Notes: generated by a model from the letters alone, not told the origin. DNA of 64,000 nt from an uncultured Planctomycetia bacterium (GCA_964460615.1 CAYWPX010000001.1:120073-184072), one strand, 5' to 3'; shown: positions 3,124-64,000, numbered from the stretch's first letter. Program-made: numbers and translations.

Positions 3124-3202
3124 GCACACACTTCGGGATAATTCGCACCTATAACTTAGTTTCCCATCGGGTCACCTAAGTTATGTGCTCATTAAGGAAA
3201 TA

Positions 3203-8835: not shown

Positions 8836-9958
8836 GAAAATCTTTGTAATCCACGCTTCAGCCGGAGGCGGCCACAGGAAAGCTGCAACAAGTCTAATCA
8901 AGGCTTTTGAGGAGCTTGGCTTTAGGCATGATATCACTCTTATTGATTCGCTTGATTATACTAATAATTCTTTTAAGAAGTCCTATCAAAAAACATATCT
9001 ATTAGCCATACAGAAACTTCAGAATCTCTGGGGGTTTTTCTACTATCTCTTGGATAATGCGGTCTTTTACAAGTTTTTTGTATCATTTGCCAGGCGCATC
9101 GTTAATCAGCTGAATACCAAGCCTTTAAGGGACCTTATAATAAAAGAAAAGCCGGATCTGATCCTGTGTACGCATTTTCTTGCGCCAGAAGTTATTGGTA
9201 ATATGAAAAATAAGGGCCTGATAGACACGAAGCTTGTGACCGTGATCACGGATTTTAAGCCTCACACATTCTGGGTTCATAGCGGGATAGATTATTACAT
9301 AGTGGCCGATCAGTATACTAAAGACGAGCTGGTTAAAAGGGGCGTTTCCGGTGATAAGATCCTCGTATATGGCATACCTATCGAAAAGGCTTTTTCTATC
9401 GACTATGACAAAAATGAGCTTAGGCAAAAATTCGGGATGAAGGATATCTTTACTGTCCTTATCGGAAGCGGCGGTTGGGGCGTGGGGCCCATAGAAAAAC
9501 TGGTAGATATTTTAGGCCAAATGGACGAGGAATTACAGGTGATGGTTGTTTGCGGTGAGAATGATATTCTTTGTAATAACATATCAAGATACGCTTCAGA
9601 TTTTAAAAACTTCGTAAAGGTTTTCGGTTATGTCAATAACATGTATGAGCTTATGTCTATTGCTGATGTCATAGTGACTAAATCAGGCGGACTTACTACA
9701 TCTGAATCATTGGCCAAGGACCTTCCGATGATTATTATAGCCCCTATCCCTGGCCAGGAGACAAGGAATTGCGATTTTATATTAAATTCCAAAGCAGGTT
9801 TTAAGATCAATAATCCTGAAGACGTAAGAGATAGGATCAAAGAACTAATAAATTCCAAGGAGCTTTTGAATAAATTAAAAGATAATATTTCGAAGATAAG
9901 AAAACCCAATTCCAGCCTTGATATTGCAAGGTTCTGTTTAAAGTTAATAGGTAACTAA
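8828..9958 (+). CDS. MGDG-synthase-like glycosyltransferase (GT28-like, diacylglycerol glycosyltransferase family)
   Basis: MNKKIFVIHASAGGGHRKAATSL N-terminus typical of the MGDG synthase family; start set at second ATG 8828 with AAGGAG SD (track start 8798). Confidence 0.7.
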   Translation: MNKKIFVIHASAGGGHRKAATSLIKAFEELGFRHDITLIDSLDYTNNSFKKSYQKTYLLAIQKLQNLWGFFYYLLDNAVFYKFFVSFARRIVNQLNTKPLRDLIIKEKPDLILCTHFLAPEVIGNMKNKGLIDTKLVTVITDFKPHTFWVHSGIDYYIVADQYTKDELVKRGVSGDKILVYGIPIEKAFSIDYDKNELRQKFGMKDIFTVLIGSGGWGVGPIEKLVDILGQMDEELQVMVVCGENDILCNNISRYASDFKNFVKVFGYVNNMYELMSIADVIVTKSGGLTTSESLAKDLPMIIIAPIPGQETRNCDFILNSKAGFKINNPEDVRDRIKELINSKELLNKLKDNISKIRKPNSSLDIARFCLKLIGN

Positions 9959-10671: not shown

Positions 10672-12735
10672 ATGATTAATAACGCCAATTCTACCGATCC
10701 TTTGGGTCAATCGTTAAGTATTGAAAGTAATCCACTGCATTTATTTGCTGAGGTTGCGCTGGATGTTCCTATAGATAAAACCTTTGATTATATAATTCCT
10801 TCCCAATTAAAAAATGATATTTCCATCGGAAAAAGGGTAACGGTCCCATTCGGCAAGAGAGACGCCGTGGGGATAGTAATAGGGTTCAGGGATAAGACGG
10901 ATATAAGGAATCTAAAAGAGATAATAAAAGTTAATGATGCTTTCCCGTTGATCGATGAAAAAATGATCAATGTTGCCAAATGGGTATCTTGCTACTATTG
11001 CGCCTCGATAGGCCAGTCAATTTTTCTTAATATCCCATCCCGTTTAAAGAAAGATGCGATCCCCAAGAAATCAAGAAAAACCAATCAAGCTAAATTAGCT
11101 CAAGAAGAGATTTTTGTCGAAGCGCCGAAAATAGAATTAAACAGAGAGCAGAATAATGCTCTTCATAGGATCAAAAGTCATCTCGGCTCTTTCAGAGTAT
11201 TTTTGTTGCATGGTGTTACTGCCAGCGGTAAGACCGAGATATATTTGAAGGCCGCAGAGGAGGTATTAAAGAACGGCAAGGATGTTATAGTACTTGTCCC
11301 CGAGATAGCCCTTACTATACAGACCATGAATAAATTTAAGGCAAAATTCAAAGACAAAGTCGCAATTATCCACTCAGGGCTTTCGGAAGGTAAAAAATAC
11401 CAGGAATGGCTGAATTGTTTGGAAGGAAGATCAAAGCTTGTTATTGGCGCAAGATCTGCTCTTTTTGCTCCGTTTAAGAATGTCGGTCTTATCATCATAG
11501 ATGAGGAACATGAGCCTTCTTATAAAGAGATGACAAGTCCCAAGTATAATACCCGTGATGTTGCTATTAAAAGGGCCGAGGCGGAAGAGTGCCCTGTCAT
11601 TTTAGGTAGCGCTACGCCATCATTAGAATCATTTTATAAGACGAGTCTCAATGAATATGAATTGATCGAGTTAAAAGAGCGTTTTGAAAAACGGCTGCTG
11701 CCGGAAGTAAAGATTGTCGACATGGCCGATGAATATCAGTTTAGAAGAATGTCCATATTTTTTTCAAGGATCCTTTTGAAGGAATTGGAAAAAATTTTGG
11801 CCAAGAAAGAGCAGGCGATACTTTTTTTGAACAGGCGCGGTTTTGCAACGATCGTCTCCTGCAAGTCATGCGGCCAGATAACTAGATGTTCGAGGTGCGA
11901 TTCGGTAATGGTTTATCACTCAGGTAAAGGAAGCTTAGTCTGTCATTACTGCAACCTTACGCAAAGGCCCCCTGTGAGGTGTCCTAAATGTGAGTCAGCG
12001 CAATTTAAGTTTTTGGGTATAGGGACTGAGAAGGTTGAGTCTGAGATAAACCGTCTTTTCCCGAAAGCAAGGGTTGCCAGGCTTGATACTGATGTGACCA
12101 AGAAAAAGGGCGTACAGGAAAAGATACTGGATGGTTTTAGAAGGCATGAGGTCGATATTCTAGTAGGTACACAGATGGTTGCTAAAGGGCTTGATTTTCC
12201 CGATGTCACTCTTATAGGTGTTATCTCAAGCGATATTAATCTGAATATTCCTGATTTCAGGGCTTCTGAAAGGACATTTAATCTTCTTACGCAGGTAGCG
12301 GGCAGGTCCGGAAGGGGTAAAAAAGAGGGACTGGTCATTATACAGACCTATAATCCAAAGCATTATTCGATAATAGAGAGCTCAAAGCATAGCTATGAAA
12401 ATTTTTATAAGGCAGAATCATCCTTTAGGAAAGAGCTTAATCTGCCTCCTTATGTTAATCTTGTCAAGGTTACTTTTTTGGCTTCAAAGAGCGAAATAAG
12501 CCAGAGTGCTGCGCTTAGCCTAAAAGGGTTGTTAATTAAAGAGTATGGTTTTTTGGAAGATGGATTTCAGGGGCCGGTCCCCGGAGTTATTTTTAAGATA
12601 AAAAACAGGTTTATCTGGAATTTATTTCTAAAGACGGGGGAAGTTCTGAAAGTCTCAAGGGCTCTAAAAAATATTTTGGGGGACTCCAGGTCTTTTAATA
12701 AGGCCTATGTCAATATTGATGTAGACCCGGTATAG
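10672..12735 (+). CDS. priA: primosomal protein N' (replication restart helicase PriA)
   Basis: Walker A GVTASGKTEIY, DEEHE box, Cys-rich zinc-binding region CKSCG...CSRCD...CHYC...CPKC; 687 aa. Confidence 0.9.
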   Translation: MINNANSTDPLGQSLSIESNPLHLFAEVALDVPIDKTFDYIIPSQLKNDISIGKRVTVPFGKRDAVGIVIGFRDKTDIRNLKEIIKVNDAFPLIDEKMINVAKWVSCYYCASIGQSIFLNIPSRLKKDAIPKKSRKTNQAKLAQEEIFVEAPKIELNREQNNALHRIKSHLGSFRVFLLHGVTASGKTEIYLKAAEEVLKNGKDVIVLVPEIALTIQTMNKFKAKFKDKVAIIHSGLSEGKKYQEWLNCLEGRSKLVIGARSALFAPFKNVGLIIIDEEHEPSYKEMTSPKYNTRDVAIKRAEAEECPVILGSATPSLESFYKTSLNEYELIELKERFEKRLLPEVKIVDMADEYQFRRMSIFFSRILLKELEKILAKKEQAILFLNRRGFATIVSCKSCGQITRCSRCDSVMVYHSGKGSLVCHYCNLTQRPPVRCPKCESAQFKFLGIGTEKVESEINRLFPKARVARLDTDVTKKKGVQEKILDGFRRHEVDILVGTQMVAKGLDFPDVTLIGVISSDINLNIPDFRASERTFNLLTQVAGRSGRGKKEGLVIIQTYNPKHYSIIESSKHSYENFYKAESSFRKELNLPPYVNLVKVTFLASKSEISQSAALSLKGLLIKEYGFLEDGFQGPVPGVIFKIKNRFIWNLFLKTGEVLKVSRALKNILGDSRSFNKAYVNIDVDPV

Positions 12736-41759: not shown

Positions 41760-42929
41760 ATGAAAAAAGTTGTTCTAGCATATTCAGGGGGCCTTGATAC
41801 TTCCTGTGCGGTAAAATGGCTGAAGGATAGAGATTATTTCGTTATCTGCTATATGGCTGATGTCGGTCAGGGCGGTAATTTTAATGAGATAAAAAAACGT
41901 GCTTTTGCCGCGGGCGCTGATAAGGTAGTGATAGAGAGTTTGCAAAAAGAGTTTGTAGAGGATTTTGCGTTCGTTTCTTTAAAAGCTGGGGCAGTATATG
42001 AATCCAAGTATTTTTTGGCGACTGCGCTTTCGAGGCCTCTTATAGGTAAAGGCTTAGTGAATGTTGCCAGAAAAGAAAAAGCTCAGGCGGTATCTCATGG
42101 ATGCACCGGGAAAGGTAATGACCAGGTAAGGATCGAGACGTCCGTCATGTCTTTGGGCGGGGACCTTGAGATAATTGCTCCCGTACGAGTGTGGGAATTT
42201 AAGACCAGAAATGAAGAGATAGATTATGCGAAAAAACAGAATATCCCGATAGATGTGACCAAAAAAAGCCCATATAGTTTAGATAAGAACCTATGGGGAG
42301 TCAGTATCGAGTGCGGTATCTTAGAAGACCCTATGGTGGAACCTCCTAAGGATGCCTATCAATGGACAAATGACCCCAAAGACGCTCCCAATAAAGAGAC
42401 TTATATTGAAGTTACTTTTGAAAAAGGCATACCTATTAAGGTCAATGGTAAATCGCTTGAACCGGTCCAGTTGGTTGAAAAGCTTAATGAGATCGGCGGG
42501 CTTAATGGTGTAGGCAGATGTGACCTCGTAGAGAACAGGCTTGTAGGAATAAAATCCAGAGAGATCTATGAAGCCCCGGCTGCATATATTCTTCACACGG
42601 CATACGAAGCATTGGAGAATCTGGTTTTAGACAGAGAGACTTTTCATTTTAAAAAGAGTTTATCTTTAAAATATGCCGAGATGGTTTATTTTGGCCTGTG
42701 GTTTACACCGCTAAAAAGCGCCTTGGACAAATTTTTTGATGAAGTTGCTAAAAAGATTAGCGGAACTACAAGGCTCAAGCTGTATAAAGGAACGTGTGCT
42801 ATCGTAGGCAGGACTTCACCGAATTCACTTTATAAAAAAGATCTTGCTACTTATGACGAAGGCGATAAGTTTGACCAGTCATTTGCCGAAGGTTTTATAA
42901 GGATATGGGGATTGCCGTATAAGAAATAG
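41760..42929 (+). CDS. argG: argininosuccinate synthase
   Basis: AYSGGLDTS PP-loop; start at ATG 41760 (track 41721). Confidence 0.9.
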   Translation: MKKVVLAYSGGLDTSCAVKWLKDRDYFVICYMADVGQGGNFNEIKKRAFAAGADKVVIESLQKEFVEDFAFVSLKAGAVYESKYFLATALSRPLIGKGLVNVARKEKAQAVSHGCTGKGNDQVRIETSVMSLGGDLEIIAPVRVWEFKTRNEEIDYAKKQNIPIDVTKKSPYSLDKNLWGVSIECGILEDPMVEPPKDAYQWTNDPKDAPNKETYIEVTFEKGIPIKVNGKSLEPVQLVEKLNEIGGLNGVGRCDLVENRLVGIKSREIYEAPAAYILHTAYEALENLVLDRETFHFKKSLSLKYAEMVYFGLWFTPLKSALDKFFDEVAKKISGTTRLKLYKGTCAIVGRTSPNSLYKKDLATYDEGDKFDQSFAEGFIRIWGLPYKK

Positions 42930-42957
42930 TTCATGGTTCATGGCTCATAGTTCATAG
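42928..42957 (+). repeat. heptad array (GTTCATG-type) overlapping the argG stop codon
   Basis: GTTCATG GTTCATG GCTCATA GTTCATA. Confidence 0.7.
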
Positions 42958-43009
42958 TTTAAAAGAACTGTGGCCAAGCGCCTGGAGCAAAACGCGGGAG
43001 AAAAAATTT

Positions 43010-48241: not shown

Positions 48242-48245
48242 ATTT

Positions 48246-48292
48246 AGCTCATAGTTCATAGCTCATAGCTGATGGCTGCGAGCTGAAAGCTT
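48246..48292 (+). repeat. heptad array pair between dapB and dapL
   Basis: AGCTCAT AGTTCAT AGCTCAT AGCTGAT GGCTGCG AGCTGAA AGCTT, ending 11 nt before ATG 48304. Confidence 0.7.
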
Positions 48293-48303
48293 AAGGGAAA
48301 AAC

Positions 48304-49470
48304 ATGTTCGAAAAATCAGATAGACTAAAGAAGCTACCACCTTATCTATTTGTTGAAATAGACAGGATGAAAAATAAGGCAAAGGCAGAAGGCAGGGATA
48401 TTATTGATCTCGGTATCGGAGACCCGGACCTTCCCACACCTGATTTTGTTATTGATGAATTGAATAAAGAATCCAAAGATCCAAGAAACCATAAATACGC
48501 TCTTGACGCGGGGCTTTTGGACCTGAGGGTTGCGATAAAGGACTGGTATAAGAAGCGATTCGAGGTTAAACTTAACGAAGCCAATGAGATCCTTCCCTTG
48601 ATAGGCTCTAAGGAAGGTATTGCGCATTTTCCTTTGGCTTTTATTAATCCGGGGGATGTATCTTTGGTTCCGGATCCATGTTATCCGCCTTATAAGGGCG
48701 GTACGATATTCGCCGGAGGGGAATTGCATATTATGCCTTTATTGGAAAAGAACGGTTTTTTGCCGGATCTTGGCGCAATAGATAAGGCAGTATTAAAAAA
48801 AGCTAAATTGATCTATGTAAACTATCCGAATAATCCTACCACGGCATGCGCTCCGGATAATTTTTATAAAGACCTTATTAAATTTGCAAAATCAAATAAC
48901 CTCATAGTGTTAAGCGATGCTGCGTATACTGAGATAAATTTCGACGGATATAAGCCGAAGAGTTTTCTGGAGTTTGACGGTGCTAAGGACGTGGGAATAG
49001 AGTTTCATTCGCTTTCGAAGACATGTAACATGACCGGGTGGAGGATCGGGTTTGCCTGCGGTAACGCAAGCCTTGTGGAGGGATTAGCGAAGGTAAAGTC
49101 CAATATCGATTCCGGAATTTTCACTGCGATACAGCGCGCAGGAATTGTTGCTTTAGTAAAATCTGAAGAGCATTTAAAGAAAGTAAATCCTATTTATCAG
49201 GGCAGGCGCGATGTTCTGGTAGATGGGTTAAATAGCATTACGGGGTGGAAAGTAAATAAGCCGAAATCAACTTTCTATGTATGGATGAAGGTTCCGAATG
49301 GTCATACATCTACAAGCCTTGCCAAATTTCTTTTAGAAAAGGTTGATATTATTGTTACTCCCGGCAATGGTTTCGGTGACAGCGGTGAAGGGTTTATCAG
49401 GTTCGCTCTTACGGTTTCTGAAGATAGGCTAAAAGAGGCAGTAGCAAGAATAAAAAAGGTCATAGGATAA
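48304..49470 (+). CDS. dapL: LL-diaminopimelate aminotransferase (DapL-type) or closely related class-I aminotransferase
   Basis: KLPPYLFVEI N-terminal motif, PLP-Lys in SLSKTCNMTGWR; context directly after dapB with no dapD/dapC/dapE in cluster. Confidence 0.7.
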   Translation: MFEKSDRLKKLPPYLFVEIDRMKNKAKAEGRDIIDLGIGDPDLPTPDFVIDELNKESKDPRNHKYALDAGLLDLRVAIKDWYKKRFEVKLNEANEILPLIGSKEGIAHFPLAFINPGDVSLVPDPCYPPYKGGTIFAGGELHIMPLLEKNGFLPDLGAIDKAVLKKAKLIYVNYPNNPTTACAPDNFYKDLIKFAKSNNLIVLSDAAYTEINFDGYKPKSFLEFDGAKDVGIEFHSLSKTCNMTGWRIGFACGNASLVEGLAKVKSNIDSGIFTAIQRAGIVALVKSEEHLKKVNPIYQGRRDVLVDGLNSITGWKVNKPKSTFYVWMKVPNGHTSTSLAKFLLEKVDIIVTPGNGFGDSGEGFIRFALTVSEDRLKEAVARIKKVIG

Positions 49471-54323: not shown

Positions 54324-54491
54324 AGCACAAGAACACATGAGCACAAGACACAGGAGTACAAGTACACAAGATCACTCGTCGCAAGTTTAAAGCTTTTACC
54401 GGTGCTCTTGTGACTGGTGCTCTGGTGACAGCAACGTTGGAGCCCTGGTGTCCTAATTATGCTGATAGCTGATTTCTGAAAACTGAAAGCT
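54324..54491 (+). repeat. composite intergenic array: 8-nt CACAAG-type units, partly complementary GGTGCTC units, then GCTGAWA heptads abutting the start codon
   Basis: AGCACAAG AACACATG AGCACAAG ACACAGG AGTACAAG TACACAAG; GGTGCTC TTGTGAC TGGTGCT CTGGTGA; GCTGATA GCTGATT TCTGAAA ACTGAAA GCT. Confidence 0.7.
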
Positions 54492-54496
54492 AAAAA

Positions 54497-55648
54497 ATGG
54501 ATAAAGTTAGACTTATTGCTACATCGACATTCGGGCTGGAAGCTATGGTTAAGCGTGAGCTTAGCAATCTCGGCTTTTATGACACGACCGGTGCTGATGG
54601 AAGAGTGGAATTCGACGCTAACTTAGCTGATATCCCGCGTTTAAATATAAATCTAAGAACTGCCGATAGAGTACTCTTAAAAATAGGTGAATTTAAAGCA
54701 TTTGATTTCGGCGAGCTTTTTGACGGGACAAAGGTACTTCCCTGGGAAGATTGGATACCTAAGGACGGTAAGATAAATGTCAGCGGTAAATGTGTCAAAT
54801 CTACTCTAATGAGTGTGCGCAGCTGTCAGTCGATAGTCAAAAAAGCTATTGTCGATAGATTAAAAGATAAATTAAAGACTGATTTGCTTCCTGAGTCTGG
54901 CCTGGAGTTTGGTATTCAGGTAGCAATGCTGAAGGATGCGGCTTTACTTACGCTAGATACTTCCGGAGCAGGGTTACACAAACGCGGCTATCGAACAGAA
55001 TCCGGTGAAGTTCCTATGCGAGAAAATCTTGCAGCTGCACTTGTAATGCTAAGTTCCTGGAAAAAAGATAAATTGCTCATAGATCCTATGTGCGGCTCAG
55101 GGACCATCCTCATAGAAGCCGCTATGATAGCCCGGAATATTGCTCCCGGATTAAAGCGTAAATTTGCCTCCGAGGATTGGCCTAAGATTGAAAAAAAGTA
55201 TTGGGACGAGGCGCGTAAGGCCGCTCGAGAGGCCATTAAGACCGAGGGGGTTTTAAATATTCTAGGTTTCGATATAGATCCGGATAGGATAAGGGATTGT
55301 AAGATTAACGCCAAAAATGCCGGAGTAGATAAGGACATAGTTTTTGAGGAAAAAGATATCAGAGAACTAAGGATAGATAAGCCGTCCGGCTATATTATCT
55401 CCAATCCTCCGTATGGTGTTGAGATGGGGACATTAAAAGAGTTGACGCATTTATATATCCTGATCCACAATATGTTTCGAAAGAAACTCGGCTGGGCAGT
55501 TTATATAATAACCGCAGATAAAAGATTTCCGGATTTTTTTAAACGCGCTAAACCTGACAGGGTAAGGAAGCTATTTAACGGTGGCCTGGAGGTAAATTAT
55601 TATCAGTATTTTGCAAAAGAGATAGAAAAGAAGGCAACTAGCTCATAG
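54497..55648 (+). CDS. THUMP-domain class I SAM-dependent RNA methyltransferase (RlmL/COG0116-like)
   Basis: N-terminal THUMP-like region; methyltransferase motifs IDPMCGSGT and ISNPPYG. Confidence 0.8.
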   Translation: MDKVRLIATSTFGLEAMVKRELSNLGFYDTTGADGRVEFDANLADIPRLNINLRTADRVLLKIGEFKAFDFGELFDGTKVLPWEDWIPKDGKINVSGKCVKSTLMSVRSCQSIVKKAIVDRLKDKLKTDLLPESGLEFGIQVAMLKDAALLTLDTSGAGLHKRGYRTESGEVPMRENLAAALVMLSSWKKDKLLIDPMCGSGTILIEAAMIARNIAPGLKRKFASEDWPKIEKKYWDEARKAAREAIKTEGVLNILGFDIDPDRIRDCKINAKNAGVDKDIVFEEKDIRELRIDKPSGYIISNPPYGVEMGTLKELTHLYILIHNMFRKKLGWAVYIITADKRFPDFFKRAKPDRVRKLFNGGLEVNYYQYFAKEIEKKATSS

Positions 55649-55711
55649 CTCATTGCTCATAGTTCATAGTAAAAGCAATAACTGAAAGCTGATAGCTGAT
55701 AGCTGAAAGCT
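55640..55711 (+). repeat. heptad array pair: (AGCTCAT)x4 overlapping the stop codon, spacer, (GCTGAWA)x4
   Basis: AGCTCAT AGCTCAT TGCTCAT AGTTCAT ...17 nt... ACTGAAA GCTGATA GCTGATA GCTGAAA GCT. Confidence 0.75.
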
Positions 55712-55731
55712 AATTTGATAGGAAATAAAAA

Positions 55732-55986: not shown

Positions 55987-55991
55987 GAGAA

Positions 55992-56064
55992 TGGCTCATG
56001 GTTCATAGCTCATTGCTCATAGTAAAAGCAAGAACTGAAGACTGTGAGCTGAAAGCTGAAAGCT
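55992..56064 (+). repeat. heptad array pair (GCTCAT-type then GCTGAA-type)
   Basis: GGCTCAT GGTTCAT AGCTCAT TGCTCAT ... GAGCTGAA AGCTGAA AGCT, ending 8 nt before ATG 56073. Confidence 0.75.
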
Positions 56065-56072
56065 AAAAAATA

Positions 56073-56765
56073 ATGACTAAAGAAATTCTATCCAAAGATA
56101 TACCAGCACCGAAGCTTATCAGATCCCGAAGGCGAAGCATCGCCTTGGAAGTCAGGCATGACGGCACCCTTGTAGTGAGGGCGCCGCATTTTCTTCCGGA
56201 TGCCCAAATACGAGAGTTTATTAGTAAGAGGCGCGCTTGGATAGATAATGTTTATAATCGTACACGTGAGAAGTTGCAATTATTTAAACCTAAGCAATTT
56301 GTTAATGGTGAGAAATTTCTTTATCTAGGCAATGAGTATACTCTGCATATAACCCAGGATATGGACGGTAAGTTTCTTTTTGAAAACCAATTTATACTTA
56401 ATGAACGGTATATAGCTAAAGCAAAAATACTCTTTGAGCGTTGGTATAGACAAGAGGCATTTATGCTTTTTACCAAAAGATGCAAATGCTATGCTCAATA
56501 TATGAGTGTAAGCTATAAAAGTATCAGTCTATCAAATGCCAAACACCGCTGGGGTTCATGCTATCCGAATGGAGGGCTTGGATTTAATTGGCGTTTAGTG
56601 ATGGCGCCGGAATGCATTATTGATTATGTAGTTGTGCATGAATTGGCGCATCTGGTTGAGGCCAATCACTCTAAACGGTTTTGGGCGCTAGTAGAAAAAA
56701 CGTTTCCAAATTATAAAGAAGCAAAGTTATGGCTAAGGGATAATCAACATAGGCTTAAGATATAA
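56073..56765 (+). CDS. YgjP-like M48-family metallopeptidase (DUF45/SprT-like, HExxH)
   Basis: HELAHLVEANHSKRFWALVE zinc motif; 230 aa. Confidence 0.8.
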   Translation: MTKEILSKDIPAPKLIRSRRRSIALEVRHDGTLVVRAPHFLPDAQIREFISKRRAWIDNVYNRTREKLQLFKPKQFVNGEKFLYLGNEYTLHITQDMDGKFLFENQFILNERYIAKAKILFERWYRQEAFMLFTKRCKCYAQYMSVSYKSISLSNAKHRWGSCYPNGGLGFNWRLVMAPECIIDYVVVHELAHLVEANHSKRFWALVEKTFPNYKEAKLWLRDNQHRLKI

Positions 56766-56880
56766 GCTCATAGCTCATGGTTCATAGCTCATACTAGAAA
56801 TAGTACGCAGTACACTGTACAAAGTACACAGTAAAAACATTACTTGTGTTCTGGTGACTGATAGCTGAAAGCTGACGACT
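56766..56880 (+). repeat. heptad arrays: (GCTCATA)x4, (AGTACAC)x5, GCTGA-type units
   Basis: GCTCATA GCTCATG GTTCATA GCTCATA; AGTACGC AGTACAC TGTACAA AGTACAC AGTAAAA; GATAGCT GAAAGCT GACGACT. Confidence 0.75.
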
Positions 56881-56912
56881 TCCGCCACAAAGCGTTGGCG
56901 GACAAGGATAGC
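56879..56912 (+). repeat. hairpin repeat element CTTCCGCCA-N8-TGGCGGACARG, copy 1
   Basis: Same ~35-nt element recurs at 59805-59839; rearranged variant at 59144-59191. Confidence 0.7.
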
Positions 56913-57105
56913 CAATATATTTATCCTTCACAATAATCCAATCAACAAATCTCCGATTTAATTTCAAATGTAGAAAATAATCAGAAAAAAGTAGACTGAA
57001 ACTATGTCCTTCCAAAACACTCCGTTATATAATTAAATATATTGAAAAAAGGAACGATCAGAAAATTGTCTGCCGTAAGACAGTCTTAAATCGAAAGGAG
57101 ATTGT

Positions 57106-57753
57106 ATGTTCACGCATCATGGGAAAACAATGATCGACCCGAAAGATTCTGTGCTTTTACTAATTGACCATCAAAGCGGTTTATTTAATCTTGTTAAAGA
57201 TATGGAAGTTGTTGATCTGCGCAATCATGTCATAGCTCTTGCCAAGGTGGCAACTAAGCTAAATATCCCTGTTATCACTACTGCCTCAGTGCCGGAAGGG
57301 GCAAATGGGCCGGTTATTCCGGAGATTAAGGTATTTGCTCCAAACGTTAAGTACATTCCGAGGCAAGGCCAGATAAATGCGTGGGATGTGCCTCTCTTTG
57401 TAAGTGCGGTTGAAGAGACAAAGCGTAAAACCCTTATTATGACCGGCACGCTCACAAGCGTATGCCTGGCATTCCCGGCCTTATCGGCAGCGTCAGCCGG
57501 ATACAAGGTATATGCAGTTGTGGATGCATCGGGGAACTGGAGCAAGATGGCGACGGATCTCACGATAGCGCGTCTCGCTCAGGCAGGAGTTATACCTATA
57601 GATACGTTCGCTGTCATAGGCGAGCTGCAGCAGACCTGGAACCGGCCTGATGCATTGGATTATGCCGAGATATTCGGTGAAAATATAATACCAAATTACC
57701 GTTTGCTTATGGAAAGCAAAAGCAATATTCAGGAGCCTGTTTACCAAAAATAG
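57106..57753 (+). CDS. isochorismatase-family hydrolase
   Basis: LLLIDHQ motif and catalytic Cys in TGTLTSVCL; 215 aa. Confidence 0.8.
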
Positions 57754-57792
57754 TTGCGTAATTAGAAGAAATTTATTTATTAAATCATAAAA

Positions 57793-57821
57793 AGGAGCTC
57801 ATTTTTGGGCTCCTTTTTTTG
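57793..57821 (+). terminator. intrinsic terminator after the isochorismatase gene
   Basis: AGGAGC-loop-GCTCCT followed by TTTTTTT. Confidence 0.6.
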
Positions 57822-57932
57822 TTCAAATTCAGGTATTTTGCCTTGTATAGGAAATCACTAAGTGCTATAATTAATCATTATAAAAGGAAACAAGCGTGAG
57901 CGAACGTAACTATAATTAGTGTTACTAGATAA

Positions 57933-57962
57933 GCAATCCCTATGGAGGGGGTTGCTTTTTTT
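57933..57962 (+). terminator. intrinsic terminator
   Basis: GCAATCCC-tatggag-GGGGTTGC followed by TTTTTTT. Confidence 0.65.
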
Positions 57963-58042
57963 GTTGGAAGGGTGATGGGGGTAGGCTTCAGGTCGCAGGT
58001 CGCCCCTCGTTTTACCCGGGGTTTACTGTGGTTGCAAGTGAA

Positions 58043-58115
58043 GATTTAAAACCTGAGACTTGCTACCGCAATCTGCGTGTGTTTCGAGCGAAGCAGAGGG
58101 ATAACCTGTGACATG
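58043..58115 (+). repeat. ~70-nt direct repeat, copy A (upstream of the DUF1559 gene)
   Basis: TTTAAA..AGACTTGCTA.C...AATC.GCG.GTGT..CGAGCGAAGCAGAGGGAT shared with 58906-58978. Confidence 0.7.
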
Positions 58116-58179
58116 TAACATAATAACTGATGGCTAATGACTGATAGGAAAATTATCAGAGTAAATTTAAAAGAATATT

Positions 58180-58878
58180 ATGAATAAAAACAATTCTTTA
58201 AAAGGATTTACTTTATTAGAACTTTTGGTTGTTATTGTTGTTATTGGTGTCTTGGCAGGGCTTCTTCTCCCCGTTATGAGCGGAGTCAGGGAGCAGGGTA
58301 GGCGTATTACTTGTCTCAACAATCTTCGCCAGCAAGGTATTGCATGGTATATGTATCTTGATGAGCATAATGATTGTTTTCCTGCATATAGTGATCCTCC
58401 AAATGATACGCAATGTATGGAAACCACTTTTGGGGGCAAAGCCGGTGATAGTGGGTTCGCAGCTACGTCGAGACCTCTTAATCGATATCTCGGGATAAAC
58501 AATACAACTCCTGCGGACGTTTTTCATTGTCCCGACGATATAAAAGCAGCTCAAGGCCAGAGCAGAACAGTCTTCGATGTTTTTGGGAACTCATATTATA
58601 TTAACCCATGCATTTTACTTTATGGGGTGACGGATAGAAGGCCCTTGGCTTCAATCACCAATCCACGTAATAAGGTGTGGTTTGAGATGTGTTCTTTGGA
58701 TATGGTCCCGGGACATAGTGGAAAAGGATTTCAAGGTAATTTCACGCCAGTAATGGTGCTTTTTGTAGATGGGCATGTAAAGGGGCCGTATCTTTCTGAC
58801 AGTGAATTTGACTGGTTTGATAATCCATCAAAATCCGTATGCTGGTATCCTAATGCTACAGAGGATCCTCTTGATTAG
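58180..58878 (+). CDS. prepilin-type N-terminal cleavage/methylation domain protein, DUF1559 (H-X9-DG) family
   Basis: KGFTLLELLVVIVVIG prepilin leader, conserved CxNNLRQ region, C-terminal LFVDGHV. Confidence 0.85.
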   Translation: MNKNNSLKGFTLLELLVVIVVIGVLAGLLLPVMSGVREQGRRITCLNNLRQQGIAWYMYLDEHNDCFPAYSDPPNDTQCMETTFGGKAGDSGFAATSRPLNRYLGINNTTPADVFHCPDDIKAAQGQSRTVFDVFGNSYYINPCILLYGVTDRRPLASITNPRNKVWFEMCSLDMVPGHSGKGFQGNFTPVMVLFVDGHVKGPYLSDSEFDWFDNPSKSVCWYPNATEDPLD

Positions 58879-58905
58879 GAGAGTAGGGTTTTATATTGCT
58901 AGTAA

Positions 58906-58978
58906 AATTTAAACTTAAGACTTGCTATCTGTAATCAGCGGGTGTCCCGAGCGAAGCAGAGGGATGGCATGGAACAGG
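58906..58978 (+). repeat. ~70-nt direct repeat, copy B (downstream of the DUF1559 gene)
   Basis: About 80% identical to 58043-58115 in the same orientation. Confidence 0.7.
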
Positions 58979-59034
58979 AGTTTTGAAAGCTGATTTTAAA
59001 AATAGTTATCTATCCTGTCAAATTCGTAAAATTT

Positions 59035-59082
59035 AGATATAACTTATTTTAAATCAAATATTATACAGTGGTGCCAGGCACC
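59035..59082 (+). repeat. conserved upstream element ending in palindrome GGTGCC-A-GGCACC, copy 1
   Basis: AGATATAACTTATTTTAAATCAAATA..TTATA..GTGGTGCCAGGCACC; near-identical at 61088-61136, partial at 63202-63239. Confidence 0.75.
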
Positions 59083-59143
59083 AGAAAAAGTACTGGAGCT
59101 CGTGATCGTACTGATAACTCCAGCTACAAAGCTTCGACATAAA

Positions 59144-59191
59144 CCATTGGCGGATAAAGTTGGCGGGCAAGGATAGCTGATCGCTGATAGG
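59144..59191 (+). repeat. variant of the CCGCCA/TGGCGG element fused to GCTGATA heptads, ending at the SD
   Basis: ACCATTGGCGGATAAAGTTGGCGGGCAAGGATAGCTGATCGCTGATAGG; left arm inverted relative to the copies at 56879 and 59805. Confidence 0.6.
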
Positions 59192-59200
59192 AGGAAAACC

Positions 59201-59788
59201 ATGAAAGTAATAGCATTTAACGGCAGCTCGCGAAAAGAAGGTAATACTGCAATTCTAATTAAGCTTGTGCTTAAGGAATTAGAGAAAGATGGTATCAAGA
59301 CTGAACTAGTGGAATTGGCCGGTGAAAAAATTCAAGGTTGCATTGCCTGTTACAAATGTGTTGCCAACAAAGATAAAAAATGCGCCATAAATGACGACAT
59401 AGTTAACGAGTGTATAGATAAAATGGATAAGGCGGATGGTATTATCATAGGTTCCCCTACATATTTTGCTGATTGCACTTCACAGACAAAGGCGCTTATT
59501 GAACGGGCTGGGTTTGTATCGAGAGCAAATGGAGGTATGTTTAAGCGTAAAATAGGTGCCGCAGTTGTATCTGTGAGGCGAGCTGGGGCGATACATGCTT
59601 TTAATAGTATAAATCACTTTTTTACAATAGGTGAGATGATAATAGTCGGGTCTAGCTACTGGAATATAGGTATAGGTAGAGAAATCGGCGATGTGGAAAA
59701 AGACGAAGAAGGTTTAAAGGTAATGAGTACACTTGGGAAGAATATGGCGTGGTTACTTAAGAAGATAGCTCCAGGCTCTGGGCTCTAG
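59201..59788 (+). CDS. flavodoxin-like NADPH-dependent FMN reductase / iron-sulfur flavoprotein family
   Basis: MKVIAFNGSSRKEGNT, GSPTYF flavin-binding motifs; Cys cluster CIACYKC...C; GGAGGA SD. Confidence 0.8.
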   Translation: MKVIAFNGSSRKEGNTAILIKLVLKELEKDGIKTELVELAGEKIQGCIACYKCVANKDKKCAINDDIVNECIDKMDKADGIIIGSPTYFADCTSQTKALIERAGFVSRANGGMFKRKIGAAVVSVRRAGAIHAFNSINHFFTIGEMIIVGSSYWNIGIGREIGDVEKDEEGLKVMSTLGKNMAWLLKKIAPGSGL

Positions 59789-59804
59789 GGAAAAAGCTCA
59801 TGGC

Positions 59805-59839
59805 TTCCGCCACAAAGCGTTGGCGGACAGGCATGGCGC
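59805..59839 (+). repeat. hairpin repeat element CTTCCGCCA-N8-TGGCGGACAGG, copy 2
   Basis: Same element as 56879-56912. Confidence 0.7.
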
Positions 59840-59978
59840 ATAGTAAAAATGAAGGACGATAGGCGAGGGATGAGAGGATAGTTTGGAGTTGGGAGCGAAA
59901 TCTATCTAAAGATAGATTTCAGGAGTTGGGAGTAAAAAAGTAAAAGAAAAAATGGGCGCCGTCCATATATATATCTAA

Positions 59979-60518
59979 ATGAAAAACTTCATAAATTTTA
60001 TCGTAAAGTACCTAGTATTTGTTTTTTTAGTTGTATTTACATTTATATCTAGCAGTTGTTGTGAGTTTGCTACTTCTGTTGCCCTAACGCACAAAATATC
60101 AAGTATTAGAGTTATTTCCGAAATTGATACAGGAGAAGCAGGAATTATTCAGATAAACGAAATTGATATTACTAAAGTTGCCGAGGATGTTTTTTTAAAG
60201 GGTGGGATAAGGGTGCTAAACAATAAAACATATGAAACGGAAAAATATCCCGGCACATTAAAAGTAATTATTAAATGGATTAAAATTAATGAGGAAAAAC
60301 ACTGCTGTAATTATACAATAAATTATGAATTATCGCAGTTCGATTCTATTGTGCAAGAAAATAACCCATATATTATTTATTCATCAGTTAGTGGGTCGGC
60401 TGGGCTAAAGGATATTAAAGAGAATATTTTAGGTTCTATAAGAAATTGGGTAAAAGATAGTATTAAAAAATCCCAAATATTTATTAAATATGAAAAAAAA
60501 GTCGATGCTTCTATTTAA
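59979..60518 (+). CDS. hypothetical exported or lipid-anchored protein
   Basis: 179 aa; N-terminal hydrophobic segment then Cys (FISSSCC); AT-rich coding region. Confidence 0.5.
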   Translation: MKNFINFIVKYLVFVFLVVFTFISSSCCEFATSVALTHKISSIRVISEIDTGEAGIIQINEIDITKVAEDVFLKGGIRVLNNKTYETEKYPGTLKVIIKWIKINEEKHCCNYTINYELSQFDSIVQENNPYIIYSSVSGSAGLKDIKENILGSIRNWVKDSIKKSQIFIKYEKKVDASI

Positions 60519-60560
60519 TAAAAAATAGGTGTGTCCCTATTTAAAATGGAAGATTAATAA

Positions 60561-61046
60561 ATGATTAAAATCAGATTTATTAATATATTTCTGACGCTAA
60601 TATTAGTAGTTTTAATGAAAACTTCCGGCATTTTTGCCGAAGGAATGCTTAATATCGAAGCAATTGATCTTCTTGATGAGTACAAAATAGTTTGTACCAA
60701 AACCGATCCTTCCTTTGAAGCTACCACTAGCGGTAAATTTATCTTTGATCCGGAAAAAAATAGCAATTACCCAATAGCATTTGTGGTTATGCTCACCCAG
60801 GATAGATCCGAAGGAGAGAATGAAGACGATCTCGATACAGTTATTAAGATGGTCATTTTAAAGGACCCTGTTTACAAAGACCTGATAAATAGCGAAAAAT
60901 CCGCAGACTCCGCCATTATACACATACCCAAGGCGAATGTCAGAAAGTCAGAAACCGAAAAGCATAATCTATCGATCAGTAAATATGAGGATGAACTAAA
61001 AAATTCAGGTGAATATAAAAATATAATATTTCCAGATAAGAAATAG
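60561..61046 (+). CDS. hypothetical secreted protein
   Basis: 161 aa; signal peptide ending SGIFA-EG; AT-rich. Confidence 0.5.
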   Translation: MIKIRFINIFLTLILVVLMKTSGIFAEGMLNIEAIDLLDEYKIVCTKTDPSFEATTSGKFIFDPEKNSNYPIAFVVMLTQDRSEGENEDDLDTVIKMVILKDPVYKDLINSEKSADSAIIHIPKANVRKSETEKHNLSISKYEDELKNSGEYKNIIFPDKK

Positions 61047-61087
61047 CAGGAGAGAGAGTGTAGTTCCTATTAAATTCTTGAAAATTA

Positions 61088-61136
61088 AGATATAACTTAT
61101 TTTAAATCAAATAGTTATAACGTGGTGCCTGGCACC
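61088..61136 (+). repeat. conserved upstream element ending in palindrome GGTGCC-T-GGCACC, copy 2
   Basis: About 45/49 identical to 59035-59082; its 3' end runs into the LamG reading frame. Confidence 0.75.
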
Positions 61137-61639
61137 GTAAAGGCACAGGAGAGACGGTAGGAAGATTTTATACTAGCTCTGGAGTCTCGTTAGTTGAAGG
61201 AGAGTGGTATAATCTTGCTTTTACTAGAAATTACAATACTTCCTCTATCTTAATTGACGGGGTTTCACTGCCCACAATTCAGCCCATAGATTGGGCCAGT
61301 AATATGGAAATTCTAACATCGCCAGTTTATTTGGGCAGTGCCGCAACAGCACCAGGATATGGATTAAGAGGATACTTAGACAATTTACAGATTTGGAATT
61401 ATGCGCGAACTGAGCAGCAATTAAAGGATTCCATTACTAATTTACCGAATGGTAACGAGGAAGGCTTAATGGGGTATTGGAATTTTGATAATATTCAAAA
61501 TGGTGTTGTGCCTGACTTAACTGAATATGGTAATAATGGTTTTATTAATCCGCCTATTTCTACGCCAGAGCCTGTATCAATGCTTTTATTTGGTATCGGT
61601 GGATGGGTGTTGGCGCTATTAAGAAAAAAACGCTCATAA
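61121..61639 (+). pseudogene. LamG-like (concanavalin-type) PEP-CTERM protein, 5'-truncated fragment
   Basis: Frame open from 61121 encodes a LamG C-terminal half (EGEWYNLAFTRNYNTSSILIDGV, DNLQIWNYARTEQQL) and a PEP-CTERM tail (TPEPVSMLLFGIGGWVLALLRKKRS); no N-terminal half or signal peptide; first in-frame ATG at 61304. Confidence 0.6.
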
Positions 61640-61764
61640 TATTGGATTGACTAAATTCTACCTACGCAGTATTATTTAGGAGTAGGAGTAAGGAAAAGGG
61701 TTCCTTACTGAATAGGGATAAGGGTTAGAAAATAATTAGTAGCTGTCCCTAATTAACGTACCCT

Positions 61765-61974
61765 ATGCATTCTGCAATAGATTGGATTCCCATAGAAACT
61801 GTATCATTTAGTAGAATAAAAGAATTCATGACTAATGTAACGACTAAGCTTCAAAATATGCTGCTCGAAGATGTTCTTAAAAACGTTGAAATGGATAAAA
61901 AAGAACGTGAGCTGTTTAAAGCTTTGTATAAAAGTAATGAAGCAATTCTTTGTATTAAATGGCCGGTTTATTAA
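61765..61974 (+). CDS. hypothetical small protein
   Basis: 69-aa ORF; no recognisable motif or clear SD. Confidence 0.3.
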   Translation: MHSAIDWIPIETVSFSRIKEFMTNVTTKLQNMLLEDVLKNVEMDKKERELFKALYKSNEAILCIKWPVY

Positions 61975-62002
61975 AAACGTAAGTTAATTTGGAGGTGGTA
62001 AT

Positions 62003-62047
62003 ATGCAAAACCTCGCGTTAAAAGTAGCTGGATTTGTTTTTGGGTTA
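62003..62047 (+). pseudogene. truncated 5' copy of the small membrane-protein gene
   Basis: ATGCAAAACCTCGCGTTAAAAGTAGCTGGATTTGTTTTTGGGTTA with GGAGGTG SD matches the 5' end of 62111 and 63736; frame stops after 26 codons. Confidence 0.5.
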
Positions 62048-62110
62048 GAAGTAAAAAACGGGTCACACCTATTTATTTGAAATTACTATAGAAAACCGGG
62101 AGGTTCAACC

Positions 62111-62296
62111 ATGCAAGACATCGCGTTAAAAGTAGCTGGATTTGTTTTTGGGTTAGTGGCTATATTACATCTTTTGAGAGTGTTATTTAAAGTAAAGTTT
62201 ACGGCAAATAATATTGTAATTCCTCTATGGCTAAGTGTAGTTGCTTCGATAGTGGCGCTGTTGCTGGCGCTTTTTATGTTCGCGTGTTTGCAATAG
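62111..62296 (+). CDS. small membrane protein, two predicted TM helices (copy 1)
   Basis: 61 aa; paralog of 63736-63924; C-terminal 24 aa identical between copies. Confidence 0.5.
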   Translation: MQDIALKVAGFVFGLVAILHLLRVLFKVKFTANNIVIPLWLSVVASIVALLLALFMFACLQ

Positions 62297-62430
62297 GGGA
62301 AGTTTGGAGTTGGCCTAGATGCCTATACCACTCCTAGTCCTCGTGGTGCTTAACGGCATCGCGGCATGAAATCGCGCATCGCTTGATTTCAGGAGTATGC
62401 GGTAACAAGTCGCAGGCCTCAGATTACATG
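62297..62430 (+). repeat. conserved GC-richer non-coding element downstream of the small membrane-protein gene
   Basis: 62279-62370 appears identical to 63909-64000 where the window ends; contains a 16-codon hydrophobic mini-ORF (MPIPLLVLVVLNGIAA). Confidence 0.6.
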
Positions 62431-62474
62431 CTAAAAGAGAAGAAAATTTTAGTAAAAGTGAGAAAAACATTAAA

Positions 62475-62876
62475 ATGAAAAAGATAAATGTAATACTAGT
62501 AATATTATTAAGCATAAGTTGTATGGGATTTTCGTTTATGAAGAAAGAATTGTCAAAAGAAAAGATATTGGAAATCGCCATTAATAGGGCAAATGAACTT
62601 GGGTTTACTCTCAATCAGGTTACTCCTTACTTTGACGAGGGAAACAAAAGACTTAAAGAACACTCAAGAAATAGCGGCGTGTCCACCTATAACGAAAAGA
62701 AAGAAGAGTGGGTATATGACGCGCCATCTACCCCGACAAAAAAATATCCTGAATTAGAAGATCGAAATTATCAGGCGGTATATTTTGCCCCCAAAGAAAT
62801 GCAGCTTGGTGGCGATCTCTGGATCTTTATAGACAAGAACACCGGGGAAGTGATCTCGTATGTGTTTGGGAAATAA
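62475..62876 (+). CDS. hypothetical lipoprotein or secreted protein
   Basis: 133 aa; N-terminal signal-like segment with Cys (LLSISCMG). Confidence 0.5.
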   Translation: MKKINVILVILLSISCMGFSFMKKELSKEKILEIAINRANELGFTLNQVTPYFDEGNKRLKEHSRNSGVSTYNEKKEEWVYDAPSTPTKKYPELEDRNYQAVYFAPKEMQLGGDLWIFIDKNTGEVISYVFGK

Positions 62877-62880
62877 AGAT

Positions 62881-63010
62881 GCTCAAGGCTCCAGGCTCTA
62901 GGGAAAAACAAAATACCGCTCCAGGTTCGGGGGTGAGTCCCCTTCGGCGAGGCTATGCTTCGCTTTGCACGGGTGAGAGGAAAACCTAGAGCTCTGAGCC
63001 TAGAGCCAAG
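62881..63010 (+). repeat. GC-rich structured intergenic element with long-range inverted repeat
   Basis: GGCTCCAGGCTCTAGGG ...~80 nt... CCTAGAGCTCTGAGCCTAGAGCC; internal GGGG-tgagt-CCCC hairpin; related motifs at 59769-59795 and 30230-30256. Confidence 0.55.
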
Positions 63011-63201
63011 AGCGGGTTTTGTGCTATATTAAATTGATGGAACAACAAAACCCTTTGTGTTATAATAAATGGTAACAGATTCGAGTAACACGGAAAGGGA
63101 ACAAGAAGCAATGGGTCTTTTTGGTAGCAAACAAAATAAAAGTATAAAGGTGAATTAATTTAAGCCGGGGATAAAATTCTCGGTTTTTTTGTTCAAAACT
63201 C

Positions 63202-63239
63202 TTTTAAATTTAAGTATTTATAAAGCGGTGCCTGGCACC
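63202..63239 (+). repeat. partial copy 3 of the GGTGCC-T-GGCACC palindrome element
   Basis: TTTTAAAT...TATTTATAAAGCGGTGCCTGGCACC, 22 nt upstream of ATG 63262. Confidence 0.6.
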
Positions 63240-63261
63240 GAAAAATTAAAAAGGAGAAAAA

Positions 63262-63651
63262 ATGGGAAAAGCTGGAAAGCTATTGATGGTTTGTATTGTT
63301 TTGGTTTTATCTTTATCTTTAGTTGGTTGTGCAACACTTTTTAAACAGAAGTCAAGAACTGTTGGTTTTGATTCTGACCCACAAGGGGCCGATATTTATA
63401 TTAATGGAAATCGAATGGGCAAAACTCCTATGCCTATGAATTTATCTAATTTAAAAGCCGTTACAGTTACCTTTAAAAAAGATGGCTATGAAGATAAGAC
63501 ATACATTATTAATACTAAAGTTGGCGGAGGTTGGGTTGTTTTAGATTGTTTGGGAGGTTTTATACCGGTTATAATAGATGCAGTTACAGAAAATTGGTAT
63601 AACCTTGATACTGACGAAGTAAAAGTTATACTTGATGTTCAAAAGAAATAA
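63262..63651 (+). CDS. hypothetical lipoprotein
   Basis: Signal peptide with lipobox LSLVGC; AGGAGA SD. Confidence 0.55.
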   Translation: MGKAGKLLMVCIVLVLSLSLVGCATLFKQKSRTVGFDSDPQGADIYINGNRMGKTPMPMNLSNLKAVTVTFKKDGYEDKTYIINTKVGGGWVVLDCLGGFIPVIIDAVTENWYNLDTDEVKVILDVQKK

Positions 63652-63735
63652 ATTCTAAAAATTAATTAAGCAATAAAAGTGGTGAGTAATAATAAGGGAA
63701 AAGGGGACGCTTCTATTTAAGTTGAAGGCACAACC

Positions 63736-63924
63736 ATGCAAAACCTCGCACTAAAAGTAGCTGGATGTATATTTGTTATAGTGGCTATTATGCAGCTTTT
63801 GAGAGTGCTATTTAAGGTAAAGATTGTGGTTAATGATAATATTATTGTTCCTATATGGCTTAGCGTGGTGGCTTCGATAGTGGCGTTGTTACTTGCGCTT
63901 TTTATGTTCGCGTGTTTGCAATAG
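63736..63924 (+). CDS. small membrane protein, two predicted TM helices (copy 2)
   Basis: 62 aa; paralog of 62111-62296. Confidence 0.5.
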   Translation: MQNLALKVAGCIFVIVAIMQLLRVLFKVKIVVNDNIIVPIWLSVVASIVALLLALFMFACLQ

Positions 63925-64000
63925 GGGAAGTTTGGAGTTGGCCTAGATGCCTATACCACTCCTAGTCCTCGTGGTGCTTAACGGCATCGCGGCATGAAAT

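Follow-up and report, generated by a model that had tools for sequence, protein, structure and literature searches.

A 64,000-nucleotide stretch of DNA deposited as an uncultured Planctomycetia bacterium (GCA_964460615.1, CAYWPX010000001.1:120073-184072; hereafter the window) contains three copies of a short intergenic element, each of which ends in the palindrome GGTGCCWGGCACC. We consider these copies to be, with a probability of roughly 0.8, solo repeats of the REP (repetitive extragenic palindromic) or TIR (terminal inverted repeat) type that belong to a RAYT/TIRYT system of the Omnitrophota (RAYT, REP-associated tyrosine transposase; TnpA-REP, a Y1 HUH enzyme), because the same family of repeats flanks RAYT genes in related genomes and more distant homologues of those transposases carry the motif of TIRtrons. 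The class of repeat is already known; its terminus here has not previously been described in the searchable literature, where the 13-mer returned only irrelevant eukaryotic matches and no bacterial context. The genes of the window are those of an ordinary chromosome, among them priA, argH, and glgC-like and rlmL-like genes, and as the best named relatives of ArgH are all Candidatus Omnitrophota (56-63% identity), it is, judged by protein similarity, part of a Candidatus Omnitrophota chromosome.

The general form of the palindrome, GGTGCCNGGCACC, is matched exactly three times in the 64 kb, and GGTGCCWGGCACC gives the same three matches, starting at 59070, 61124 and 63227, all on the + strand. 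The mean for GGTGCCNGGCACC in shuffled sequence is 0.06 and none of 100 shuffles gave three matches; a chance origin is excluded. Allowing up to one mismatch adds nothing to the three copies in the 64 kb, and at up to three mismatches the additional matches in the window occur only at chance level. In each copy the palindrome forms the 3' end of a conserved element of ~60-90 nt. A preliminary description of this DNA had reported three palindromes at ~2.1-kb spacing and an element of ~48 nt at 59035 and 61088, and both observations are confirmed: the spacings are 2054 and 2103 nt, the 26-nt block AGATATAACTTATTTTAAATCAAATA is exact at both positions, and copies 1 and 2 are ~90% identical across 48/49 nt when the sequence is read directly. 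In the alignment their likeness reaches ~59010-59099 and 61062-61152, ~16 nt past the palindrome. The same description took copy 3 to consist of the palindromic 3' part only, which is not the case, as 48 nt of copy 3 (63197-63244) align with copy 2 at 79% identity. Given the ~90% identity, copies 1 and 2 would be recent duplicates, and copy 3 is probably older. Outside the element, the aligned sequences around the three copies are mutually unrelated, the segments between them show no homology at a ~2.1-kb period beyond the element itself, and the near-equal spacings are best read as coincidence. Rfam covariance models run over 56000-64000 with E up to 1 returned nothing relevant.

To place the element among other genomes, public collections were scanned with TTATANNGNGGTGCCNGGCACC, giving 7 genome matches and 23 metagenome matches, some of them chance occurrences inside genes. 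At many of these loci the palindrome is repeated several times within a few kb, in very different organisms: an Omnitrophica metagenome-assembled genome (MAG; L007), Sedimentibacter (L004/L025), a Spirochaetia genome (L006) and contigs of 68-72% GC (L029, L011). Alignment of 19 oriented copies defined a conserved module of ~50-55 nt, (GAAAAT)...T(A/G)TAAC(T)...(G/C)TTAWAAYGY followed by GGTGCCWGGCACC, which the window copies fit over ~55-60 nt. An nhmmer profile made from the 16 non-window copies only, run on the window, recovered exactly the three copies, on the + strand, and nothing further: copy 1 at 59026-59084 (E = 7.2e-6), copy 2 at 61077-61138 (E = 1.2e-12) and copy 3 at 63187-63241 (E = 5.5e-11). 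All three are members of the family, and contig L035 has, upstream of its RAYT gene, a repeat identical to the core of copy 2, GTTATAACGTGGTGCCTGGCACC. Elsewhere the copies flank a Y1 transposase gene, stand singly or form tight clusters 7-50 nt apart; single dispersed copies occur in the same contigs as the flanking ones (L007:5176, L035:2571, L009), and clusters and pairs are found in other lineages. In the 68-72% GC contigs (L029:36-66, 1120-1205 and 4632-4665; L011:2368 and 5204) the repeat unit is GAAACAGTATACTGTGGTGCCAGGCACCATT, in which an AT-rich palindrome, ACAGTATACTGT, adjoins the GC palindrome, the whole unit being conserved despite the high-GC background. The palindrome loci of other phyla have no consistent neighbour gene except mobile-element genes, namely the RAYT gene in L029 and an Rpn/YhgA-like open reading frame (ORF) in L006 that was recognised by eye from the sequence only. 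A sequencing adaptor or other artefact was considered as the source of the motif and excluded, since the motif is present in independent assemblies, from several technologies and lineages, and in a biological context.

The association with a transposase gene is observed directly in the relatives. In the 68%-GC contig L029, a 334-aa ORF with a match to Pfam Y1_Tnp lies between inverted copies of the element. A tblastn search with this protein identified, at 31% identity, a 217-aa ORF in L007 (Candidatus Omnitrophica; 1296-1949), situated between palindromes at 1243 and 1974, with the third copy of that contig at 5176. The AT-rich side of each repeat faces the transposase gene and the palindromes point outward, and the protein sequence shows the HUH (HFH) and Y (YVHLNP) motifs. 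Contigs were then retrieved for six proteins closely homologous to that of L007 (60-75% identity; L032/L033, L034, L035, L036, L040 and L041). In all six, the palindrome itself or a variant is found ~40-45 nt before the transposase ATG, exact in four, with one mismatch in L032/L033 (GGTGACAGGCACC) and shortened to GCCAGGCACC in L034, and in four of them a second, inverted copy follows shortly after the gene. Counting L007 and L029, an upstream copy is present in all eight contigs and an inverted downstream copy in six. Every one of these transposases scores 83-102 bits with NCBIfam NF047646, 'REP-associated tyrosine transposase', whose cut-off is 80, and stays below the IS200 cut-off. The gene order Mem_trans-RAYT-uvrD is common to L007 and L032, which is how a resident, vertically inherited RAYT gene behaves, unlike a hopping insertion sequence. 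The Omnitrophota-clade transposases closest to L007 (201-228 aa) match PF01797 only, PF08299 appearing from ~52% identity downward. Two RAYT homologues checked in ENA come from samples other than those that hold matches to the window proteins. The preliminary description was right to regard the element as non-random and as mobile or recombinogenic in character; it named the wrong kind of system.

Folding of the repeats as single-stranded DNA predicts a GC hairpin with a stem of about 5-7 bp in four of the five copies tested, with Z-scores of -1.1 to -2.8. For window copy 2 the predicted fold pairs the left arm instead with an additional downstream half-site, a partial one (GGCAC, 61142-61146), and in window copies 1-3 an AT-rich hairpin lies 5' of the GC hairpin, at least in the minimum-energy fold. 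The hairpin is preceded by G(T/C)GG, which extends into the first two bases of the stem; GTGG is found only in window copies 1 and 2 and at L035:2902, and GCGG is the commonest form among the remaining copies.

The closest known counterparts are the TIRtrons with their TIRYT transposases, characterized by a GGGGWSAS motif (Di Nocera et al. 2013, PMC3733652) and classed as TnpA-REP subclass 2.1 by Quentin et al. 2018, who found no REP-like sequences beside subclass 2.1 genes (PMC6006769). As in TIRtrons, a RAYT-like Y1 HUH gene stands between inverted repeats (~22-50 nt) at a fixed short distance, with further copies in the same contigs, and the repeat family is dispersed as single, paired and clustered copies in moderate number; 'double palindromic' TIRs are also on record for TIRtrons. 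This arrangement is seen in the relatives, the window itself holding repeats only. Homologues at ~45% identity that carry Bac_DnaA_C, in a Scalindua MAG (L042) and a Nitrospirae MAG (L043), lie between TIRs GGGGTCAGACCTTCA / GGGGTCAAACCTTCA (L042:9930-10000 and 10967-10990; L043:8370-8434 and 9395-9415). They carry exact GGGGWSAS forms (GGGGTCAG / GGGGTCAA), and their TIRs hold a mini-palindrome, GGTC-A-GACC, analogous to GGTGCC-W-GGCACC. Within the Omnitrophota clade, GGTGACAG (L032, L040) agrees with GGGGWSAS at 7/8 positions and GGTGCCAG at 6/8, and both termini look like a palindromic derivative of that motif. The differences from TIRtrons are that the terminus here is a perfect 13-nt palindrome instead of the published motif and that the Omnitrophota proteins, at 201-228 aa, have no Bac_DnaA_C/HTH tail on record. 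With the proteobacterial REP/REPIN-RAYT systems (E. coli TnpA-REP, Pseudomonas REPINs; PMC3116915, PMC5581495, PMC8266576) the Omnitrophota system shares the NF047646 family, a repeat-flanked (REPtron-like) transposase gene at one syntenic locus, and short, extragenic, hairpin-forming elements with a conserved 5' flank, presumed to be mobilised in trans as single-stranded DNA. The likeness to IS200/IS605 elements (IS608, ISDra2) extends to the Y1 HUH family and to a hairpin with a guide-like flank as the presumed recognition unit; in contrast to those elements, the proteins fall short of the IS200 cut-off, the flanking repeats are inverted and not in the same orientation, and the gene occupies the same syntenic locus in the two Omnitrophota contigs that allowed a comparison of context.

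By analogy with IS200/IS605 TnpA and E. coli TnpA-REP, the GC palindrome would fold into a 5-6-bp hairpin on single-stranded DNA, and the transposase would recognise this hairpin together with the conserved 5' flank, then nick and rejoin the strand (PMC6006769, PMC8266576). Such nicking and rejoining would spread copies in trans and turn the repeats into hotspots of deletion and rearrangement. Copy 2 may be the mark of one such event, in which the 5' part of a LamG/PEP-CTERM gene was removed. The preliminary description had placed this copy at the truncation point of the gene, and its placement stands. The frame that leads into LamG is open over 61121-61639, and its first in-frame start codon is the ATG at 61304, from which the public gene call of 111 aa starts; a search for an overlooked upstream start found none in frame before it. 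Pfam Laminin_G_3 aligns at profile positions 61-150 of 151 only, with PEP-CTERM at residues 147-169, and the remnant has neither the N-terminal third (~60 profile positions) nor a signal peptide nor a start codon. In the whole window, LamG homology is confined to 61130-61627 (tblastn with nine multi-LamG proteins), beginning at 61130-61151, directly after copy 2. The breakpoint was placed by these Pfam and tblastn coordinates, and by them the truncation point lies within ~10-15 nt of the end of the copy 2 palindrome. For the comparison with full-length genes that had been proposed, a word-indexed search found no close full-length LamG orthologue and an exhaustive one returned only giant multi-LamG proteins. 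The 3' end of the element had also been said to be in frame with the remaining coding sequence; the frame is indeed open from 61121, but this amounts to merely 8 codons without a stop. The loss of the LamG 5' part may have come about by insertion of the element followed by deletion, or by recombination at the element, in either case leaving a dead remnant.

Several observations weigh against the assignment of the window copies to a RAYT/TIRYT system. The window contains no RAYT gene or relic of one (tblastn, 31 queries), and because of this absence any mobilisation of its copies would, by analogy, have occurred in trans. In comparison with classical REPs the hairpin stem is short (5-6 bp versus 7-20 bp), and the GTAG (or GTGG) tetranucleotide that lies 0-2 nt 5' of REP hairpins (PMC6006769, PMC3733652) has no counterpart as a GTAG head in the aligned copies, where the flank reads GYGG after TTAWAAY and the conserved part reaches ~35-45 nt 5' of the hairpin. 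The density is also much lower than in a classical REP family, with three intergenic singlets in the 64 kb, all within 4.2 kb, and no inverted doublets (REPINs) in the window. The variants in L032 and L040 have a stem mismatch with no compensating change, which suggests that recognition may depend on sequence and not on structure. Relative to GC skew, the dispersed copies are oriented with mixed signs in a small sample. Finally, the three window copies share a tail of ~16 nt past the palindrome, GAAAAnnnAnnGGAG, that is missing from the RAYT-flanking copies of other genomes, so the window copies may have arisen, wholly or in part, by local duplication or gene conversion.

Among the alternatives, we regard as distinctly unlikely a combined promoter and operator, in which TAACTT...TTATAAC supplies the -35 and -10 boxes and a regulator dimer on the palindrome co-regulates the flavoprotein, the lipoprotein and other genes. 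All three window copies point to downstream genes on the + strand, as would be expected of promoters, but nearly all window genes are on that strand, and their co-orientation says little. A TTATAA/TATAAT-like box does lie 3-4 nt 5' of the palindrome in most aligned copies, and copy 3 occupies the interval from a terminator-like hairpin to the PEGA-domain lipoprotein gene, which starts 22 nt further on; yet a sigma-70 consensus scan calls no site at any window copy, and copy 2 precedes no start codon. In the relatives, the uvrD start codon directly adjoins the palindrome, without a Shine-Dalgarno sequence (L007:1974-1990, GTG; L032:10674-10690, ATG), and the guaA ORF of L035 (3613-3640) begins with an ATG that lies within the repeat, its translation continuing through the palindrome (MLKNGAWHR...). 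Against these cases, three contigs (L007, L035 and L036) have the copy that precedes the RAYT gene directed into the 3' end of the gene before it, the dispersed copy at L035:2571 is likewise directed into the 3' end of a gene, and L007:5176 is followed by a terminator-like hairpin and only then by consensus-like TTGACA and extended -10 (TGGTATAAT) boxes. No regulator gene is consistently adjacent and none was identified, and an operator would not be expected to bracket a transposase gene in inverted orientation in eight contigs. As a general property of the element, the shared operator or promoter module of the preliminary description is not supported, with copies pointing into gene 3' ends and no sigma-70 site called. 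It is possible that the AT-rich, TTATAA-like box beside the hairpin drives outward transcription at some sites, copy 3 for example, and such transcription would then be a side effect of the element and not its defining function; a role of the element as a portable outward promoter and leader, supplying or adjoining the uvrD and guaA start codons in relatives, is a secondary possibility. A sigma-54 promoter was considered separately and rejected: there is a TGGCAC, but none of the copies has a GC/TTGC element at the required distance from it.

The second alternative, which we judge very unlikely, is that local segmental duplication or gene conversion accounts for the copies entirely, these being relics of an extinct system with no transposase link in this genome. 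The confinement of all copies to 4.2 kb fits this explanation, as do the 16-nt tail that only they possess and the presence of other duplications nearby, among them paralogous genes for small membrane proteins and a tract of 165 nt with 93% identity. However, the sequences flanking the copies are unrelated, the family clearly occurs in other Omnitrophota too, linked there to an intact RAYT gene, and the ~90% identity of copies 1 and 2 suggests recent copying. An integron-like cassette array, with the palindromes as crossover sites between ~2.1-kb cassettes, one of which replaced the LamG 5' end, is hardly credible: the similar spacings (2054 and 2103 nt), the direct orientation, the copy at a gene truncation point and the lower G+C of the region (0.335-0.38), with its many small hypothetical genes and local duplications, speak for it, but there is no integrase or recombinase in 56-64 kb, the segments lack periodic homology beyond the element, copies in other genomes are not at regular kb spacing, the enzyme associated with them in relatives is a Y1 HUH transposase and not a cassette integrase, and a 1-nt centre between 6-bp arms is unlike the core sites of tyrosine recombinases. 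From the earlier suggestion that the element bounds a recombining cassette, the link with a rearrangement breakpoint is retained; the missing periodic homology, the direct copies and the lack of a recombinase nearby speak against the cassette itself, and the search for a cognate regulator or recombinase that had been proposed with it gave neither.

Beside full palindromes, we also observed tandem duplications of 13-14 nt, each consisting of 7-8 nt of the outside flank and one half-palindrome (GGTGCC or GGCACC). They comprise ttctaatGGTGCC three times in L036:1520-1571, gccgttaGGTGCC twice in L007:1217-1255, tttattaGGTGAC twice in L032:9920-9960, aaaaaaaGGTGCC and GGCACCttttttt twice each in L020:3180-3240, and GGCACCgcaaata twice in L004 (2388-2433, 4560-4640 and 6930-7010), and window copy 2 has a partial additional half-site, GGCACCgtaaaGGCAC, at 61131-61147. 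The strain pairs L004 versus L025 and L012 versus L020 differ by exactly such 13-14-nt units, and these indels within the palindrome arrays were counted as recent activity. The duplications occur in at least five unrelated lineages, and we know of no description of this pattern. They may be the footprint of nicking and religation by the transposase. A broader proposal, which we offer tentatively and consider unlikely, is that GGTGCCWGGCACC is the recognition hairpin of a large, multi-phylum RAYT/TIRYT lineage and that the half-site duplications are a nick/rejoin footprint at the hairpin centre; such a lineage may span the Omnitrophota, the 68%-GC lineage, probably Sedimentibacter, the Spirochaetia and others. 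If the footprint interpretation were true, the chemistry by which REP/TIR repeats are disseminated would become testable, and the strain-variable duplications could show how domesticated transposases act.

Read as transposase-associated repeats, what look like operator sites in an uncultured phylum become members of an identifiable class, which should prevent their annotation as regulatory sites or cassette boundaries, and a pseudogene breakpoint is explained. The RAYT/TIRYT clade also gains a concrete, searchable DNA partner, the wider subclass having been reported without REP-like sequences. For most readers this will be an ordinary repeat family; its interest would increase if the palindrome seen across phyla and the duplicated half-sites turn out to mark subclass 2.1 activity in general.

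Table 1. Element copies in the window and the features beside them (positions counted from the first nucleotide of the window).
Feature	Position	Strand	Basis or detail
Element copy 1	59010..59099	+	Core 59035-59082; palindrome GGTGCCAGGCACC at 59070-59082 (centre A)
NADPH-dependent FMN reductase gene	59201..59788	+	PF03358, E = 1.3e-31
Element copy 2	61062..61152	+	Core 61088-61136; palindrome GGTGCCTGGCACC at 61124-61136 (centre T); adjoins LamG remnant
LamG (Laminin_G_3)/PEP-CTERM remnant	61145..61639	+	Pfam, tblastn, open frame
Terminator-like hairpin with T-run	63162..63186	+	Overlaps diverged 5' edge of copy 3
Element copy 3 (more diverged)	63172..63256	+	Palindrome GGTGCCTGGCACC at 63227-63239 (centre T)
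PEGA-domain lipoprotein gene	63262..63651	+	PF08308

The features around the copies are collected in Table 1. As the preliminary description had it, copy 1 precedes the flavoprotein gene, here identified as an FMN reductase, and copy 3 a lipoprotein gene. The FMN-reductase gene follows copy 1 at a distance of 118 nt, and we treat it as a neighbour, with no control by the element implied. The tail of copy 3 extends into the Shine-Dalgarno sequence of the PEGA lipoprotein gene, and the terminator-like hairpin stops 10 nt before the 48-nt core of this copy (63197), so that any PEGA promoter would fall within the ~75 nt that copy 3 occupies.

The 56-64 kb region is unusually rich in several small repeat families. 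A second intergenic family, found just after stop codons, consists of runs of a (G/T)(C/T)TCATAG heptamer, a short spacer and runs of CTGAAAG/CTGATAG (42924-42958, 48242-48305, 54462-54498, 55636-55725, 55989-56071, 56761-56875 and 59171-59190), and one of its copies contributes to the 5' leader of the FMN-reductase gene. Short intergenic repeats occur as the pairs 56868-56917/59793-59842, 59768-59795/62881-62908 and 58070-58113/58933-58976, and include a hairpin-forming TCCGCCACAAAGCGTTGGCGGA unit and GCTCCAGGCTCTGGGCTCTAGGGAAAAA. Two paralogous genes for membrane proteins of 61-62 aa, with a third copy cut to 25 codons just upstream, are found at 62004-62080, 62111-62372 and 63736-64000; each paralogue is followed by a non-coding tract of 93% identity, the repeat spanning 62208-62372 and 63836-64000, and together they indicate that duplication has taken place locally in the variable, lower-GC region in which the elements also lie. 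At the other end of the window, tandem carbamoyltransferase paralogues (1342-3051 and 3185-4909) share a 300-nt tract at 99% identity (2095-2394 versus 3953-4252), whereas the neighbouring 300 nt are just 70% identical, a pattern that suggests gene conversion.

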